From an uncultured Acidobacteriota bacterium (GTDB lineage Bacteria; Acidobacteriota; Thermoanaerobaculia; Gp7-AA8), in contig CAVUKB010000001.1 of assembly GCA_963741955.1 (NCBI GenBank), forward strand, positions 128,001-192,000: DNA of 64,000 nt. The letters run 5' to 3'. Shown one piece after another: positions 1,700-33,455 of the stretch. A program made the position numbers and the translations under genes. The notes below the pieces were generated by a model that was not told the origin of the DNA, made no database searches, and was given only the letters and a program-made list of their open reading frames with translations. Position 1 is the first letter of the stretch. The number at the start of each line of letters is the position of its first letter.

Positions 1700-1863
1700 C
1701 TAGGAGTCTGCGCGGTAGAAACGTCCGTAGCGAGAAAGTGGAGCAGCGAGGCCAAATTCGTTCGGATTTGAGGTTCGTAGCGGCTACTCGCCGAAAAACC
1801 GGACGGATTTGGACCGCTGATCCGTTTTCGCAGTAGGACAGTTTCCATCGCGCAGACTCCTGG
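1700..1863 (-). mobile_element. MITE family A, copy 1
   Basis: TIRs CTAGGAGTCTGCGCGGTAGAAAC ... GTTTCCATCGCGCAGACTCCTGG; interior is the reverse complement of the copies at 4389 and 31551. Confidence 0.88.
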
Positions 1864-3357: not shown

Positions 3358-3596
3358 GTTCGTACGAATGCCGGAAGCCGTTCGTACCATTCCACCTCGT
3401 CCACTTCCCGCCGGTCAACTCCGGGACCGCATCGTCGCCTTCGGGATCCTCGGACCCAGTTTGTGATCTCCACCTTCCTTCAGCTTCTGACTCGGACATA
3501 CTCCTCTATCTGACCGGGACCTCCTTCGATGGAGCGCGCGCGAACGGGAACTTCGGGGCGCTCCGGGCGTTGTCTCTGTGGACGCGCGAAAGTCTG

Positions 3597-5231
3597 ATGC
3601 CAGCTGCCCGGAGGAGAGTGCCGACGTTGAAGCGACCAGTCCTGGTTTCCCTTCTTCTTTTCTCGACGCTGCTGCCGATCGGTTGCGCGCACACGGCCGC
3701 AGTGAATCGAGCCGCCACCGGATCGAACGAAGCGCGGATTGCCCGAGAGCTCGACCAGTACCTGACCATTCGCTCGGAGATGGGCGCGTTCAGCGGCGCA
3801 GTCCTCGTGGTCCGCGACGGCAGAACGATCTTCAGAAAGGGCTACGGGTACGCCGACGTCGCCCGGCGAGTCCCTTTCACGCCGGAGACGCGGCACGAGG
3901 TCGCATCCGTCTCGAAGATGTTCACGGCCATGGCTGCCCTGAAGTTGCGCGACGCCGGCAGGCTCACTCTTCAGGACTCGATCTGCCTTCACCTTCCCGA
4001 CTGTCCCGCGCAGTGGAAGCCGATCACGGTCGACGAGCTGATCCACCACACCTCCGGCATCCCCGACTATGAAGAGAAGCTCGGTCTCGGCTCCGAGAAA
4101 TACATGCGGTTCATGGAGGCGCAGGACGCGTCGAAGCGGATTTTCGAGGAAGCGAAGTCGCTCCCTCTCGGCTTCGAGCCGGGTACGAAGTTCGAGTACA
4201 GCAACACCGGCTACATCGTCCTCTCGCACGTAATCGAAAACGCGGCTGGCGAGGCGTTCGAGCGCTTCGTCCGGGAGACGCTTCTCGTTCCCGCCGGGAT
4301 GAGCCGTTCGGGCGTTCTCGGCGCCGGGCCGCTTCCACCCGATCTCGCCATCGGCTACACGCACGACGACCTGGGCTGGGAGCGGACCCTAGGAGTCTGC
4401 GCGGTAGAAACTGTCCTACTGCGAAAGCGGATCAACGGTCCAAATCCGCCCGGATTTTCGGCGAGTAGCCACCGCTACGCACCTCAAATCCGAACGAATT
4501 TGGCCTCGTTGCTCCGCTTCTCGCTACGGACGTTTCTATCGCGCAGACTCCTAGCCGGCGTGCCTCTGACCGAGGAGCATCTCGAGGCGCAGCCGTTCCT
4601 TCCTCTCACGCCCCCCGAAGGAGATGCGTGGCTGTACAGTACGGTCGACGACCTCGCCCGCTGGAGCGAGATCATGGACGGCAGCGCGCTCGTTCCTCCC
4701 GCGGAGGCAGCGGAAGTGTTCACGCCGGAGCAGGACGGCTACGGCGAAGGCTGGTTCATCGGCAACGCCTTCGGTCGGCGGCGCTATCGCCACACCGGCT
4801 CGCTGCCGGGGTACACGACGGACTTCATCGAGTTCCCGGACGACCACCTGACCATCGTCGTCTTCAGCAATCTGGATCGCGCTCCGATGGTTCACATTGT
4901 CCGCAACGTCTCTCTGATCGCACTGGGGATGCCGTACGACATGCCGGTGAGGGGTAAGGTCGTGAAGTTGACTCCGGAAGAGATCGCGCCCCTGGAAGGG
5001 ACCTACAGGATGGCGGACGGGACGGAGGTCGAGATTCGTAACGAGCCGAAGTACCTCACGGCCGACGTCAAGCGGAGATATACTGCCGGCCTCATTCCAC
5101 TCTCGCCGACTCGCTTCTACATGCCCCTCGCCGATGGCATTGTGACCTTCACTCCCGGCCCGGACGAACGAGCGGAGAGCGTGAACCTCCACTACAGCGC
5201 AGAAGACCATGTAGCGCAGCGAATGAAGTAG
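3597..5231 (+). CDS. Serine hydrolase (beta-lactamase/AmpC-like family) lipoprotein carrying an in-frame 54-aa MITE insertion
   Basis: SxxK (ASVSKMF), HHTSGIP, YSNTGY, LYSTVDDL, HTGSLPG; lipobox-like LPIGC; start uncertain. Confidence 0.9.
   Translation: MPAARRRVPTLKRPVLVSLLLFSTLLPIGCAHTAAVNRAATGSNEARIARELDQYLTIRSEMGAFSGAVLVVRDGRTIFRKGYGYADVARRVPFTPETRHEVASVSKMFTAMAALKLRDAGRLTLQDSICLHLPDCPAQWKPITVDELIHHTSGIPDYEEKLGLGSEKYMRFMEAQDASKRIFEEAKSLPLGFEPGTKFEYSNTGYIVLSHVIENAAGEAFERFVRETLLVPAGMSRSGVLGAGPLPPDLAIGYTHDDLGWERTLGVCAVETVLLRKRINGPNPPGFSASSHRYAPQIRTNLASLLRFSLRTFLSRRLLAGVPLTEEHLEAQPFLPLTPPEGDAWLYSTVDDLARWSEIMDGSALVPPAEAAEVFTPEQDGYGEGWFIGNAFGRRRYRHTGSLPGYTTDFIEFPDDHLTIVVFSNLDRAPMVHIVRNVSLIALGMPYDMPVRGKVVKLTPEEIAPLEGTYRMADGTEVEIRNEPKYLTADVKRRYTAGLIPLSPTRFYMPLADGIVTFTPGPDERAESVNLHYSAEDHVAQRMK
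4389..4554 (+). mobile_element. MITE family A, copy 2, in frame inside the serine hydrolase
   Basis: CTAG at 4389 and 4551; TIRs CTAGGAGTCTGCGCGGTAGAAAC / GTTTCTATCGCGCAGACTCCTAG; net insertion 162 nt. Confidence 0.92.
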
Positions 5232-9209: not shown

Positions 9210-10054
9210 TCAATACGTGTTGAGCGCGAAAATTGCGAACGGTTGACTCGCATCCGTGAGATATCCGGGCAGCCAGGGGCGAGAAGCCCCAAGGTCCTTC
9301 GAATGGACGTACACCGTGAAAGATGACCCTGAGTATGGCGGAACGACGACGAGTTCGACGTTGTTCGTGCTCTCAGGCGATGGCATGATGCATGTTGCGT
9401 AGCTCTGCTCTGTAGAGGGGTTGATGTAATTACCCCAATAGGTCGCGCAGTTGCCGAAGTATACCTCAAGATCGAGATCTCTGGTGAGGAGCGGGCTTGC
9501 ATTCCCGGGTGCGGACGCGAAGTCGGACCACGCGAGCACGATTACCGTCCGTTTTGATTGATCGGCCACCGTGAACGTCCGGGACCGCTGTTGGCCTGAA
9601 TCCGTGAAGTTAGCGAGGGTTCCTTCGTCCAGGTAGGTTTTTGTCCAAGCGTTGGTCGAGGAGGTAGCCAAGGTAGAGACGTCCGAATCCCTGACCCGTG
9701 GTGATGTCAGGAATTCCGTTGACGGTGCCAGCGGTGTATTGATCCTTCCCGCCCTTGAGCGAATATGCACCACCAACGAGCGCGGCTTTCATCATGGCAG
9801 CCGAGAACCGATTCGTCGTTGTTCGGCCTTGTTTCGCGTTGATGAGAGCTATCGCGGCGGCGGCTTGTGGAGACGCGAAGCTCGTTCCTGAAGACAGCTG
9901 GTAATCAGCGTCGGTCGTCGTGCCGTACCCTGTGCTGCAAAAGTACGTTGAATAGCTGTGTTTCATGCGAGCGACCGTAACCAGTGTGGATGGCGCGACG
10001 AGTTCCGGTTTGATTCTGCCGTCCCCTGCAGCAACGCCGCGGCGACTCACGAGA
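9210..10054 (-). pseudogene. Subtilisin-like S8 peptidase, 3' fragment with a frameshift
   Basis: DGRIKPELVAP, SGTSFASP (catalytic Ser), AAMMKAALV, GQGFGRL in one frame; IVLAWSD, DLDLEV, NNVE in another (shift near 9655); 5' part replaced by MITE B. Confidence 0.85.
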
Positions 10055-10203
10055 CTCCGACGGGCGCCACGGCTCCCGCCGTGGCCGCGCAGATCGCCTT
10101 CAGAACGGCAACGAGACGACACCTGCGGCAGATGCGCAGTAGCTCCGCGCATCTGCTCTGTGAACACCCACAGTGCCCCTTAAGTTCAGGCCATTGGGGC
10201 TAG
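10055..10203 (-). mobile_element. MITE family B, partial copy (one end only)
   Basis: Reverse complement CTAGCCCCAATGGCCTGAACTTAAGGGGCACTGTGGGTGTTCACAGAGCAGATGCGCGG... matches 31714-31861. Confidence 0.85.
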
Positions 10204-29384: not shown

Positions 29385-30950
29385 ATGAAGCGACTATACT
29401 CGACGGCAGGGACGGGTGCGATTCTCATCTGGGCGGCGATCGTCTTTGCGCAGACTACCTCGACCGCCACGCTCAGCTTGCCCGGCTCCCAGCGCACCAT
29501 CGCGACGGTGGAGTCGAACGGCCGAACGTTCTTCTCGGCCGATGACGTGGTGACTGCACTCGGCGGAACGGTCACCTCCGACAATCACGGGTTTCTCGCC
29601 ACGATCGGAGATCAGCAGGCTGCGTTCGGTCCGGACACACGATTCGGCGTCGTCCGGGACGACCTGATCGAGATGCCGGTCGAGCCGATGGTCGTCGACG
29701 GTCGTGCCTACGTACCATGGCAGTTCTTTCAGGGAGTGCTCCAGAAATCCTCCAATCAACAGGTGAGCTGGGACGCAACGAATCGGATTCTTGCCATACG
29801 GCCTTCACCCAAGCAGACGCTCAACGCACAGCTTTCGCTGGTGGACCTCGGCGGGCTCTCGAAGCTCGTGATCCAGCTCTCGGGAAAGAGCGACTACGAC
29901 GTGTCGCGGGAGCGCGACTACTACGCGATCCGTTTCAAGTCGCCGATACAGGCGCCGCCCGAGCAGTCGTTCGACGATCCGCTCGTCACGCGGATGGTCT
30001 CCCGGAACAACGAGATCGACGTCTGGTTCGCGTCACCCGAGGTGACTGCGACGTCGTACAGTCTGGAGAAGCCGTTCCGGGTCGTGCTCGATTTCAGGAA
30101 AGGCGTCCCGGAGCTCAAGCCCGGAGTGACGCTGCAGACCCCTCTCGCAGTGCCGAATGCGAAGCCGGCTGGAATCCGGACCATCGTCCTCGACCCGGGT
30201 CACGGCGGGAAGGAAGTCGGCGCGATCGGACCGTCGGGGCTGATGGAAAAGGACGCCACGCTGGAGCTCTGCAGGCGTCTTCAGAACCTTCTCACGTCGC
30301 GTCTCGGCGTCCGGGTGGTGCTCACTCGTGACGACGACTCGGTCGTTCCGCTCGAGCAGCGCACCGCCGTGGCGAACCAGTACAAGGCGGATCTCTTTCT
30401 CTCCGTCCACATGAATGCCGCAACGGTGAAGGGGGCGAAGGGAACCGAAACGTACTTCCTCTCTCTCGACGCGTCCGACGAAGTTGCGAGACGTGCAGCG
30501 GAGATCGAGAACGCGTCGGCGAGCTCTGCGCCGGGAGGGAAGTCGGACCTGAAGATGATCCTCTGGGATCTCGCACAGCAGGAGTACCTCAACGAGTCGC
30601 ATCGTCTCGCCGTCGACGTTCAGGACGAGATGAACACTCTCGCAGGGATCCAGGGTCGTGGCGTGAAGCAGGCTCCGTTCAAGGTTCTGGTCGGAGCGAC
30701 GATGCCCGCTGCGCTGGTGGAAGTCGCGTTCATCACCAACCCCGACGAAGAGGCGAAGCTCCGGAGCGATCGGTTCCAGGAGCAGGCAGCGGATGCACTC
30801 GAGCACGCGATCGCGAAATTCAAGAGCGAGTACGAGGCACGGATCGGTCTCGGCGGCCCGGAGACATCCGGGCGAGCCGCAGCGCCAGCCGCCGCGGCAG
30901 CACCTCCCCCCGCATCTCCAGCACCGTCGAAGAAGTCCGGGAGCTCCTGA
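29385..30950 (+). CDS. N-acetylmuramoyl-L-alanine amidase (Amidase_3)
   Basis: IVLDPGHGG, EKD, LTRDDD, FLSVHMNA, GTETYFL, PAALVEVAFITN. Confidence 0.95.
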   Translation: MKRLYSTAGTGAILIWAAIVFAQTTSTATLSLPGSQRTIATVESNGRTFFSADDVVTALGGTVTSDNHGFLATIGDQQAAFGPDTRFGVVRDDLIEMPVEPMVVDGRAYVPWQFFQGVLQKSSNQQVSWDATNRILAIRPSPKQTLNAQLSLVDLGGLSKLVIQLSGKSDYDVSRERDYYAIRFKSPIQAPPEQSFDDPLVTRMVSRNNEIDVWFASPEVTATSYSLEKPFRVVLDFRKGVPELKPGVTLQTPLAVPNAKPAGIRTIVLDPGHGGKEVGAIGPSGLMEKDATLELCRRLQNLLTSRLGVRVVLTRDDDSVVPLEQRTAVANQYKADLFLSVHMNAATVKGAKGTETYFLSLDASDEVARRAAEIENASASSAPGGKSDLKMILWDLAQQEYLNESHRLAVDVQDEMNTLAGIQGRGVKQAPFKVLVGATMPAALVEVAFITNPDEEAKLRSDRFQEQAADALEHAIAKFKSEYEARIGLGGPETSGRAAAPAAAAAPPPASPAPSKKSGSS

Positions 30951-30951
30951 C

Positions 30952-31554
30952 GTGCGCGCAGAGAAGAAGTCTTTCCTCATTATTTTCGTCGCGGCCGTGG
31001 CTCTGGTCGTGGCGTGCTCGCGTGGTTCGCGCAACAACTCCGAAGTCGTATCCGCTCGCGTGCGGGAAGCGAACAAGGTCGCCACCCGCGCGGTGACGCT
31101 CTACTTCGAGTCGCCGGATCTCGTGCTCGTCCCCGAGAAGCGCAACGTCGCGCTCCCGGAGAGCGACGTCGCGGCGGTCTCCACCGTCGTTCGTGAATTG
31201 CTCGCCGGCTCCTCGAACGCTGCGGTCGCGAGATCGTTCCCGAAGGATGCCGCCCTTCGTGGCGCATTCCTTCTTTCCGACGGGACGGCGATCATCGATC
31301 TCGGCGGCGACACTCTCGCCACGGGCTGGAACACCGGGAGCCACGAAGAGTTGATGGCGGTCTATTCGCTGGTGCAGACTCTGATGGACAACTTCCCCTC
31401 GGTGAAGCGGGTCAGGATTCTCGTCAACGGCCAGCCGGCTCCGACTCTCGCGGGCCACGTCGCCATCGATCACGCGCTGAAACCTCTGACCTGGCTCGTC
31501 GCCGCACAGCCCCCCGCACCGGCCGCGCCACAGCCTCCTCAAGAGGGGCGCTAG
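30952..31554 (+). CDS. GerMN domain lipoprotein
   Basis: LVVAC lipobox, TLYF, ELLAG, VYSLVQTL, VRILVNGQ..TLAGHV; stop TAG lies in the MITE CTAG. Confidence 0.9.
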   Translation: MRAEKKSFLIIFVAAVALVVACSRGSRNNSEVVSARVREANKVATRAVTLYFESPDLVLVPEKRNVALPESDVAAVSTVVRELLAGSSNAAVARSFPKDAALRGAFLLSDGTAIIDLGGDTLATGWNTGSHEELMAVYSLVQTLMDNFPSVKRVRILVNGQPAPTLAGHVAIDHALKPLTWLVAAQPPAPAAPQPPQEGR

Positions 31555-31717
31555 GAGTCTGCGCGGTAGAAACTGTCCTACTGCGAAAGCGGATCAACGG
31601 TCCAAATCGGTCCGGATTTTCGGCGAGTAGCCACCGCTACGCACCTCAAATCCGAACGAATTTGGCCTCGCTGCTCCGCTCTCTCGCTACGGACGTTTCT
31701 ACCGCGCAGACTCCTAG
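31551..31717 (+). mobile_element. MITE family A, copy 3
   Basis: CTAG-bounded; perfect 23-bp TIR CTAGGAGTCTGCGCGGTAGAAAC / GTTTCTACCGCGCAGACTCCTAG. Confidence 0.92.
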
Positions 31718-31945
31718 CCCCAATGGCCCGAACTTGAGGGGCGCTGTGGGTGTTCAGAGAGCAGATGCGCGGAGTTACTACGCATCTGCCGCAGGTGGCG
31801 TCTCGTTGCGTTCTGAAGGCGATCTGCGCGGCCACGGCGGGAGCCGGGGCGCCCCTCGGAGAGGGGATCCTTCGCTGCCCAGCAAGCTCGCGTCGACTCC
31901 CGGCTGACACGCTGATTTTGCTCAAGTTCGGGCCATTGTCTTTAG
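31714..31945 (+). mobile_element. MITE family B, full copy
   Basis: CTAG...TTAG borders; 18-bp perfect IR CAATGGCCCGAACTTGAG / CTCAAGTTCGGGCCATTG. Confidence 0.85.
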
Positions 31946-32126
31946 CCCGCATTTCTCACACCGCCTCGACGCGGGGAGGCGGAGAGCGGCTTGGATACAA
32001 GGCGCGCGCAACTTCGGCGACGAAGGCATAGTGGTGACTATGTTGAGGAGCCGAAGATGTGCGCAACGTAGTAGACAGGCCGCTATCCGTCTCCGCAGCA
32101 AAGACGATGTGAGAAATGCGGGCTAG
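31942..32126 (+). mobile_element. MITE family C
   Basis: TTAG...CTAG borders; 18-bp perfect TIR TAGCCCGCATTTCTCACA / TGTGAGAAATGCGGGCTA; central CATAGT..ACTATG hairpin. Confidence 0.85.
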
Positions 32127-32284
32127 GAGTCTGCGCGATAGAAACCGTCCTACTGCGAAAGCGGATCAACGGTCCAAATCCGCCCGGATTTTCGGCGAGT
32201 AGCCACCGCGTGGCGCCCCTCGGAGAGGGGATCCTTCGCTGCCCAGCAAGCTCGCGACGAGACGGTGTGAGAAATGCGGCCTAA
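32123..32284 (+). mobile_element. Chimeric MITE: A left half + B interior + C right end
   Basis: 32123-32209 matches A, 32209-32256 matches B (GGCGCCCCTCGGAGAGGGGATCCTTCGCTGCCCAGCAAGCTCGCG), end GGTGTGAGAAATGCGGCCTAA matches C. Confidence 0.82.
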
Positions 32285-32311
32285 GAACACGGCTGAGACT
32301 GGTAAGCGCCT

Positions 32312-32373
32312 CTGTCACAGTCCTGTTACACACGTGAAATTTTTCACAATGTCGTGCGGATCCTTCGTATAAT
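32312..32373 (+). promoter_or_regulatory. Promoter with Pho-box-like direct repeat, CRP/Rex-like palindrome and TATAAT
   Basis: CTGTCAC-N4-CTGTTAC at 32312-32329; CGTGA-N6-TCACA at 32333-32348; TATAAT at 32368-32373. Confidence 0.65.
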
Positions 32374-32380
32374 CGTCCTC

Positions 32381-32562
32381 GAAAAGAAAACTGGATGGGC
32401 AGACAAGGAATTTGCTTCCCTGGTAATTGCCTGCCGATACCTGATGAAAATCAGTCCTGACATCCGCAGTTAAGCCCATCACAAAAAGCCAACCTCCCCA
32501 GCGTTCCGGAAGGCTCATCCAGTGAGAATCAGCCCCGGCCGAAAGGCCGGGGCGGTTTTTTT
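32381..32562 (+). ncRNA. Candidate ~180-nt small RNA
   Basis: Lies between TATAAT and a terminator; ACTGGATGGGC (32390-32400) pairs with GCTCATCCAGT (32513-32523); internal CTGAT-GAAA-ATCAG hairpin. Confidence 0.55.
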
Positions 32563-33455
32563 GTGAGCTGAATGAGGATCTGGTCGAGGACGAGCCGGAT
32601 GTCGGCGTTCACGATCATCTTTGCGAAGCCGCGAAGCGCAGCCTCGGATGCTTCGAGGAGTCGGGCAACGTCGATCCCTTTGCGTACGCGCTCCACGGCG
32701 GCCGGGTCGACGGAGTGATCGCTCTCCAGCGCGGCCAGATCTCGGAGTGCCGCCGCGAGAATGGTCAACGCAACCCGCGGCTCTCCGATCGCGCTCAGCT
32801 CCGCAGAGAGCGCGAGGAGCGCGGCCGTGTCATCCTCCGTCGCGTAGGCCTCGACGGCGTGGACGATGCTCCCCGTCGCTTCCCGGATGGTCTCGAGATC
32901 CACTCCCGGCAGGAGCTGCTGCAGCCGGGCGATCTGAAGAGGCAGGCCCTCCGTGCGCGCGAGCTCTCGTGCGGGGATCTCGACGTCGGGGCGAATGGGA
33001 ATGGACTGCGAGCGTGACCTGATGGTCGGGAGGAGGAGATCCGCCGAGCGTGTGAGGAGAAGAAAGATCGAGTTCCCCACCGGCTCTTCGAGAGTCTTGA
33101 GGAGTGCGTTCGCTCCGGAGACGCTCATCGCATCGGCGGGATCGACGATGAAGACCTTGTGCTTCCCCTCGTAGGGACGCAGGGTCGCCTCCGCGATCAT
33201 TCCGCGGATCTGTTCGATGGCGATCAGCTTCCGCTGTTCGGCGACGGCGATGGTCTTCACGTCGGGATGCGCGCCCCGATCGATCCTGCTGCAGGTCGGA
33301 CAGGAGTCGCCGAGCGATCCCTCCGGGCACTGCAGCGCCTTGGCTATTCCGATCGCCACGTCCCGCAGGCGGTTCGGGTCGGGACCGTGGAGGATCAACG
33401 CGTGGTGAAGACCGCCGCGACTGGCGGTCTTGTAGAGCAGCCTGGTCGCGCTCAT
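32529..33455 (-). CDS. holB: DNA polymerase III subunit delta'
   Basis: HALILHGP, C-x7-CxxC zinc module, HPDV, IEQIR, ANALLKTLEEP, LLPTIRSR; follows tmk. Confidence 0.93.
   Translation of the reverse strand: MSATRLLYKTASRGGLHHALILHGPDPNRLRDVAIGIAKALQCPEGSLGDSCPTCSRIDRGAHPDVKTIAVAEQRKLIAIEQIRGMIAEATLRPYEGKHKVFIVDPADAMSVSGANALLKTLEEPVGNSIFLLLTRSADLLLPTIRSRSQSIPIRPDVEIPARELARTEGLPLQIARLQQLLPGVDLETIREATGSIVHAVEAYATEDDTAALLALSAELSAIGEPRVALTILAAALRDLAALESDHSVDPAAVERVRKGIDVARLLEASEAALRGFAKMIVNADIRLVLDQILIQLTKKPPRPFGRG
32532..32562 (+). terminator. Rho-independent terminator (overlaps the holB 3' end)
   Basis: GCCCCGGCC-GAAA-GGCCGGGGC followed by GG and T7. Confidence 0.85.

Follow-up and report, generated by a model that had tools for sequence, protein, structure and literature searches.

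Four abutting elements at the end of a GerMN gene

The window analysed here is a 64-kb stretch of DNA with 64% G+C from an uncultured Acidobacteriota bacterium (contig CAVUKB010000001.1, forward-strand positions 128,001 to 192,000, numbered here from 1). It carries a train of four small repeat elements, called A, B, C, and D in this study, that abut with zero spacer from a CTAG at 31551 to a CTAA at 32284. The train occupies the convergent intergenic region between a GerMN gene and a DNA polymerase III delta'-like gene. The GerMN open reading frame (ORF) at 30793-31554 on the plus strand (Pfam Germane, E = 1.6e-18) is preceded by an amidase gene, and the first CTAG junction (31551-31554) includes its stop codon, TAG at 31552-31554. 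The further junction 4-mers are CTAG at 31714-31717, TTAG at 31942-31945, CTAG at 32123-32126, and CTAA at 32281-32284. With the 4-mers on both sides, A extends over 31551..31717, B over 31714..31945, C over 31942..32126, and the mosaic element D over 32123..32284, all given on the plus strand. The element lengths are 163, 228, 181, and 158 nt, respectively. The initial annotation had described four abutting units of three families with these junctions and a start in the GerMN stop codon, and all of this is present in the sequence.

The same annotation had given A, B, and C distinct terminal inverted repeats, which a repeat finder recovered. The arms of A are 53 nt in length and 79% complementary, those of B match perfectly over 18 of 18 positions (CAATGGCCCGAACTTGAG; 31721-31738 and 31921-31938, 3 nt inside each 4-mer), and those of C are 24 nt in length and 92% complementary (31943-31966 and 32102-32125). 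The A terminal repeat, CTAGGAGTCTGCGCGGTAGAAAC, was found at 31551 on the plus strand and at 31717 on the minus strand with 0 mismatches each; without the junction it reads (G)GAGTCTGCGCGGTAGAAAC. The C terminal repeat is CCCGCATTTCTCACA. When the whole train was folded, A and B each paired with themselves, while the left arm of C paired with the right arm of D. In the window, the A, B, and C repeats have 7, 3, and 3 matches, where 0.00, 0.06, and 0.00 are expected, and none of 100 shuffles reached the observed counts, so that chance is excluded. The copies comprise three of A plus the A part of D, one and a half of B plus the B part of D, and one of C plus the end of D. A, B, and C are small non-coding elements that recur, wholly or in part, within the window, are bounded by inverted repeats, and have no transposase gene.

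Other kinds of content were looked for in the train. Five ORFs cross it, and no Pfam family reaches its curated cut-off in any of them; the sole match is a weak one to HEWD (E = 0.048). A search of positions 31000-33000 with all Rfam families at E <= 1 gave four weak matches, far under the gathering scores and none of them in the train; thus, no known RNA family accounts for the repeats. A scan of 31400-32700 for promoters and terminators gave zero promoter-like sites and a single terminator-like site, which is outside the train.

Element A and the IS1182 family

Two solo copies of A exist in the window. One, at 1700..1863 on the minus strand, has 92.6% identity and one flank that has decayed to CCAG. 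The other, at 4389..4554 on the plus strand, has 96.9% identity and CTAG on both sides, and it lies in frame inside the ORF of a beta-lactamase-family serine hydrolase (3570-5231, plus strand). It adds 162 nt, or 54 codons without a stop, and Pfam PF00144 aligns in a single stretch across the insert. None of the 8 aligned homologues has the 54 residues, which fall exactly at GWE(R/K)T|LAG, a site encoded in the window as ...acc CTA Gcc. The best homologue has 57% identity by BLASTP and 63% in the alignment. Since the residues are lacking in 8 of 8 homologues exactly at the target site, A is a true insertion. The 4389 copy is the only A copy whose length is divisible by three; the train copy is 163 nt.

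I scanned a genome collection with the A terminal motif and obtained at least 68 loci; the statements below on these loci hold among the matches listed. The exact A 20-mer GGAGTCTGCGCGGTAGAAAC, mostly following CTA and joined to dissimilar interiors, occurs in several phyla: in Gammaproteobacteria (Woeseiaceae, Pseudomonadales, Marinobacter, and Halovibrio), in Acidobacteriota and Thermoanaerobaculia, and in one metagenome-assembled genome (MAG) each of Chloroflexota and Binatota. In locus L046, the 20-mer bounds a 1.57-kb element on both sides (positions 5-1574), and elements of the same kind, about 1.5 kb in length, are present in L037 and L022. The proteins of these three elements (440-442 aa) score 353-373 bits against the NCBIfam model NF033551 of the IS1182 family of insertion sequences (IS), whose cutoff is 270. 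A fourth complete IS1182-family copy was found in L029 by tblastn, and the four transposases are mutually 58-68% identical.

A parentage of the IS5/IS630 type had been proposed at first, which is not supported for A and C. The transposases beside A-type and C-type repeats score 21-51 bits with IS5 models, whose cutoffs are 110-275, and pass the IS1182 and IS1380 models only. Because its 20-nt terminal repeat is identical to that of transposase-bearing IS1182-family elements, A is classified by its ends as an IS1182-type MITE (a miniature transposable element with inverted repeats) of ~159-163 nt. Its closest copies among the matches listed, A-like MITEs of ~163 nt in 8 Acidobacteriota MAG loci, are 73-79% identical, and by this measure A is a new sequence family. 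The gammaproteobacterial loci have MITEs with A-type ends that are shorter or otherwise filled inside. It was also observed that MITE lengths lie near 160 nt in separate lineages whose interiors are unrelated and whose ends are GGAGTCTGCGCGGTAGAAAC (L046, L022, L037, L029, and about 60 others).

Element C and the IS1380 family

A C-type end, CCCG[C/G]AT..TTCA..., bounds positions 1551-3230 of L022. The protein encoded there (457 aa) scores 363 bits against the IS1380-family model NF033539, whose cutoff is 180. C shares 10 of 16 terminal bases with this element, the single full-length one in hand. MITEs in L057, L032, and L045 have graded repeats that bridge the L022 repeat to CCCGCATTTCTCACA of C, and many of the loci listed carry MITEs with the C-type repeat or its graded variants. 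On the strength of this graded series, which ends in a complete IS1380-family element, C is tentatively assigned to the IS1380-type MITEs. IS1380-family elements make duplications of 4-5 bp and have ends beginning with CC. The ends of a C-type MITE in L045, CTAA|CCCGC...CCGGG|CTAA, are consistent with both. Of the autonomous IS with matching terminal repeats that the initial annotation had called for, candidates were found in other genomes for A and, by way of the graded series, for C. None was found for B in the plasmid collection or among the loci listed, and tblastn found no IS1182 or IS1380 transposase in the window.

Some C-type ends were seen in other settings. In L013 (900-1204), a C-type repeat is followed by an inward ORF that appears by eye to be Fic-like and is not an IS1380 transposase; the ORF may be a passenger gene, or the C-type repeat may be a solo end. 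Solo C-type ends of ~17-25 nt lie at or just past upstream stop codons in L057 (2530-2565) and L059 (9880-9900), which suggests that remnants of C-type elements are common at gene ends.

Element B, a third family

The outermost 3 nt of B are not inverted repeats, being CCC on the left and TCT on the right, and the end may be written as (CCC)CAATGGCC. B-type ends were seen solely in the window and in L059 among the matches listed. In 6 of 7 B-type ends, TA stands exactly 4 nt outside CAATGG, and the 3 nt between them are not inverted repeats. No parent IS of B was found in a plasmid collection by blastn or among the loci listed; blastn of B and C against the plasmid collection gave short chance matches, none at a terminal repeat. 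B is best regarded, from its sequence, as a third family whose parent was not found and whose boundary is the least certain of the train elements. A half copy (B positions 1-146) is present at 10055..10203 on the minus strand, is 93% identical, and ends in CTAG.

This half copy overlaps the 5' end of an ORF at 9610-10167 on the minus strand, which retains just positions 188-274 of the 288 positions of the Peptidase_S8 profile. The missing half of B and the front of the protease gene may have been lost in one deletion.

CTAG is scarce, and about half of its sites border an element

The tetranucleotide CTAG had been called rare at the outset, and the count bears this out. There are 13 CTAG sites in the window, against 66.8 expected from dinucleotide-preserving shuffles and 213 from base composition. 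Seven of these 13 border an A, B, C, or D element, and two lie between two elements. About half of the CTAGs already border elements, so about half of new insertions would land beside an existing element if the sites are equivalent. The idea that each insertion seeds the next fits these data.

The flanks differ between the element types. Among the matches listed from the 68 loci and the window, A-type ends are preceded by CTAG in 82 of 118 cases and by CCAG in 11. A loose C-type pattern gave 34 listed matches, with CTAG in 15, TTAG in 4, CTGG in 4, TTAA in 1, CTAA in 1, and other 4-mers in 9; the flank is YTAR (Y, pyrimidine; R, purine) in 21 of the 34. C-type elements accept YTAR, while those of the A type keep almost strictly to CTAG. 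The train agrees with this, in that TTAG and CTAA, its two junctions other than CTAG, each adjoin a C-type end. Stop codons that follow a C or T supply ready-made YTAR sites, which may explain why the train starts in a stop codon.

What the flanks say about the size of the duplication depends on the copy. The solo A copy at 4389 has CTAG on both sides, and since this target is palindromic, 2 bp and 4 bp are indistinguishable there. In the C-type MITE of L045 (15931-16112), both flanks are CTAA; a direct repeat of this asymmetric 4-mer argues for a 4-bp duplication.

The decayed flanks of A-type ends were also inspected. Among the matches listed, they are mostly CCAG followed by the G of the element (11 of the 36 non-CTAG flanks), with CTGG only once; examples are in L004, L008, L009, L014, L024, L043, and other loci, and at 1859-1863 in the window. 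C-type flanks that are preceded by C read CCTGG. CTAG seems to decay toward CCWGG, and very-short-patch repair would shift CTAG in this direction.

Abutment recurs in other genomes

Is the exact abutment peculiar to this locus? Four of the 118 A-type ends coincide with contig ends, and the other 114 have a flank of 34 nt. Directly across the 4-mer, the loose C-type pattern is present at 15 of the 114 ends among the matches listed. I sorted these by eye into three chance-like cases (L001, L053, and L060), four partial or doubtful ones (L013, L021, L057, and L059), and eight clear ones (L004, L005, L068, L022 twice, L032, L036, and the window). At two more of the 114, an A-type end abuts a B-type end. 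The orders vary, being [C][A] in L032, [A][C] in L036, and [C remnant][A][B-like] in L059, where the C-type remnant and two MITEs, one A-like and one B-like, stand in a row 3' of a response-regulator gene. In L022, full-length copies are arranged as an IS1380 end, CTAG, IS1182, CTAG, IS1380, CTAG, and a further A-type end. Half of an A copy is followed in L020 by a C-like MITE beside a tRNA gene. Without a shared target, units that abut exactly end to end would not be expected in several genomes of two phyla. The recurrent abutment and the scarcity of CTAG together make target sharing with duplication a good explanation, and they agree with the seeding idea of the initial annotation.

These data also bear on two other explanations. 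A, B, and C might be a single composite that moves as a block, the locus then consisting of one full and one deleted copy. D preserves the order A, B, C, and in L059 an A-type end again precedes a B-type element, as a block would predict. In the window, solitary copies of A occur at 1700 and 4389, and a solitary half of B at 10055, so A-B-C is not one fixed element there, contrary to the refuting case named in the initial annotation; elsewhere A abuts C directly or stands alone, and the orders vary. I therefore regard a mobile block as highly improbable. Alternatively, the train might be an assembly artefact in which repeats were collapsed or chained. Repeats are hard to assemble, and among the related loci several consist of short MAG contigs that stop in these very repeats. 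Against this, the four units differ by 3-8% from one another and from other copies, the junctions are unique, family-specific, and located inside a 64-kb contig with intact flanking genes, and like junctions recur in independent assemblies. An artefact is thus very hard to credit.

Element D is a mosaic of A, B, and C

The fourth element had been read as the left part of A, the interior of B, and the right part of C in a unit of about 160 nt. This holds: D is 158 nt in length and consists of 88 nt with 95% identity to A-left, 52 nt with 96% identity to B 31845-31896, and 27 nt with 89% identity to C-right. The first segment (32123..32209, plus strand) shares, over 85 nt, 97.6% of its positions with the 4389 copy of A and 95.3% with the adjacent A. 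The second (32209..32260, plus strand) matches B 31845-31896 at 50 of 52 positions. The third (32253..32284, plus strand), a C-type right arm with CTAA, shares an 8-nt sequence, CGCGACGA, with the second. One refinement is needed, as the right end of D fits the inverse of the C-left arm (27 of 30) about as well as C-right (21 of 23); the last 32 nt of D match the inverse of C-left at 29 positions. These figures suggest that D has retained the right arm of a less-decayed C copy.

The two joins are of different kinds. At the first, A sequence ends after A position 87 and gives way to B sequence at about B position 132, the microhomology being ~1 nt. The other join lies within the 8-nt CGCGACGA, whose B version is CGCGTCGA (31889-31896) and which is found inverted in C-left at 31966-31973; the C family carries this 8-mer in the arm beside its terminal repeat. 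D is thus most simply understood as a doubly deleted A-B-C array. One deletion would have led from an A' unit into a B' unit by a near-blunt join with ~1 nt of microhomology, and another from B' into a C' unit across the 8-nt direct repeat CGCGWCGA. A strand-switch origin of the right end of D, by way of the 37-nt inverted repeat formed by C-left and D-right, was also considered; a deletion between 8-nt direct repeats is simpler.

It had been suggested that recombination in the array generates new hybrid elements, and D is indeed a hybrid by sequence; that it is a new mobile element is unproven, and it looks like a deletion derivative. If D were a mobile hybrid MITE family that arose by recombination in a train, it would have transposed into the CTAG next to C. 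It is MITE-sized, with good terminal repeats and YTAR 4-mers, and its A and B parts are not nearest to the adjacent copies, as would be expected for an immigrant. Its left end is of the IS1182 type and its right end of the IS1380 type. As a general rule, one transposase pairs two like ends, and no transposase is known that by itself pairs an IS1182-type end with an IS1380-type end. Neither the window nor the 68 loci, from which the source genome is absent, yielded a second copy of D. A mobile hybrid family is therefore very doubtful. Given the unlike ends and the rule that like ends are paired, D is probably a dead remnant of an A-B-C array and is unlikely to be mobile.

A rare, duplicated target site as the probable cause

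The train is probably a spacer-less array of non-autonomous derivatives of DDE (Asp-Asp-Glu) transposons that share a duplicated CTAG target. In this account, transposases encoded outside the window would have mobilised A, B, and C. All three families would insert at CTAG, and C-type elements also at the looser YTAR. Each insertion would duplicate its target and so turn one site into two, both touching the ends of the element. Where CTAG is scarce, later CTAG-seeking insertions would often land at the edge of an existing element, and trains with shared 4-nt junctions would build up in this order of events. D would be what remains of a second A-B-C array, or of serial insertions of A', B', and C', rather than the insertion of a fourth family.

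Several points weigh against this account. No transposase of the IS1182 or IS1380 family was found within the 64-kb window by tblastn, and the source genome lies outside the 68 loci. The loci in which abutment was counted were preselected for the A repeat, among the matches listed, and the fractions are not genome-wide rates. B is represented by 3 complete copies and one half copy only, and a 9-bp direct repeat, CCCGTAGCC, on both sides of one B copy in L059 suggests another boundary. A 9-bp duplication was not adopted for B, as neither the window copy nor the second L059 copy fits it. The A part of D is nearer to the distant copy at 4389 than to the neighbouring A, and its B part shares a T, seen by eye, with the half-B copy and not with the adjacent B. 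An origin of D in situ from the adjacent copies is thus not favoured, and these similarities indicate a precursor other than a recent copy of its neighbours. When the window was compared by megablast and dc-megablast with the 68 loci, which do not include the source genome, the matches were all MITE-sized, and no orthologous empty site was present. Finally, three of the four elements have unequal flanks (CTAG/TTAG for B, TTAG/CTAG for C, and CTAG/CTAA for D), so a strict 4-bp model needs at least two later transitions, or else the duplication is 2 bp, TA.

Such a TA-only duplication, as made by IS630/Tc1-like elements, would leave the terminal G...C of the elements to rebuild CTAG, and the original site would have been C-TA-A with a TAA stop codon. 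It needs no later mutation, because all junctions are accounted for when the locus is read as gcgc-TA-[A]-TA-[B]-TA-[C]-TA-[D]-TA-agaaca. Moreover, G precedes GAGTC in 117 of 118 A-type ends among the matches listed, though the other three flank positions vary; this constancy is partly forced by the search pattern. The transposases tied to the A and C repeats are of the IS1182 and IS1380 families, not IS630 or IS5. The available text of PMC3281130 gives direct repeats of 4 bp for ISPse1 (IS1182 family) and 5 bp for IS1247 (IS1380 family), and that of PMC3852290 gives 4 and 0 bp for IS1182-derived MITEs of 160 and 169 bp, respectively. The CTAA/CTAA of L045 and a TTAA beside CCCGC in L001 also speak against it, as the fourth base at C-type ends varies with the target. 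I consider the TA-only duplication rather unlikely, and a duplication of 4 bp is favoured over TA. An empty site between GerMN and holB would distinguish the cases: if it read gcgCTAGgaaca, the train would go back to a single site whose copies mutated later, whereas gcgCTAAgaaca would fit a TA duplication or a first insertion of the C type.

The A+T-rich stretch beyond the train

About 245 nt of A+T-rich DNA, from 32287 on, separate the train from the convergent delta'-like gene. The stretch ends in a strong terminator-like hairpin with a T run on the plus strand (32532-32562), which lies outside the train. Between 32287 and 32562, nothing promoter-like was matched, and Rfam families gave no hit better than chance. 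The stretch could be a small RNA gene or merely an operon terminator.

Relation to known systems

The IS1182 family includes both IS and MITEs, such as ISPse1 and the ISMac2-derived MITEs of Methanosarcina acetivorans, and A resembles them in that its 20-nt repeat equals that of NF033551-encoding elements. Its size of ~160 nt and its 4-nt flanks also agree with the 160-bp IS1182-derived MITE, as far as the available text of PMC3852290 describes it, and with the 4-bp direct repeat given for ISPse1 in that of PMC3281130. A differs in being a new sequence family that has no autonomous partner in the window. The targets of other IS1182-family members are inverted repeats or short palindromes: in the portions available, PMC8027508 reports GGCC for ISPsy36, and PMC5678879 reports inverted repeats for IS1272. 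A CTAG target for the subgroup of A was not found in the literature searched. The C-type repeat, like the NF033539 element of L022, begins with CCCG.ATT, and a 4-bp direct repeat is seen; C itself differs in being non-coding and 177 nt in length and in sharing only the 10 of 16 terminal bases mentioned above. Both elements are new members of established kinds, IS1182- and IS1380-type MITEs.

Small non-autonomous elements that cluster or insert side by side owing to a target preference are known, as in the nested and multimeric MITEs of plants and the bacterial interspersed mosaic elements of Escherichia coli. The present case differs in that unrelated transposase families share a rare 4-mer and abut exactly at the duplicated target, and no role in binding a host protein is indicated. 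Miniature elements derived from Tn3 form mosaic non-autonomous transposons that have two like ends and were shown to transpose, according to the available text of PMC4133298. D is similar to these in that non-autonomous elements combine into a larger mosaic, but its ends are unlike and its mobility is doubtful. A literature search on CTAG-linked targets of IS1182 or IS1380, on trains of MITEs, and on hybrids gave no description of trains that mix families, which is no proof of absence.

A bolder generalisation may be put forward, though it is quite improbable. In CTAG-starved genomes of several phyla, unrelated DDE families (IS1182, IS1380, and the third) would build self-extending mixed arrays of IS and MITEs. 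Such arrays would be nurseries of two-family hybrids made by illegitimate recombination, and some of the hybrids, D for example, would be mobilisable when both transposases are present.

For annotation, such trains yield spurious ORFs, and one A copy forms an in-frame part of a real gene. By their terminal repeats, two repeat families that had no annotation in an Acidobacteriota-like genome can be assigned an IS1182 parent and, more tentatively, an IS1380 parent, and one terminal 20-mer is common to IS1182-type elements of several phyla. The train is real and neat but mechanistically ordinary; it is a predictable outcome of a rare duplicated target and leaves the current view of transposition unchanged. 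The locus is a concrete and checkable example of how target scarcity shapes the accumulation of transposons, in which a rare palindromic 4-mer, duplicated at each insertion, would gather unrelated families into trains at gene ends.

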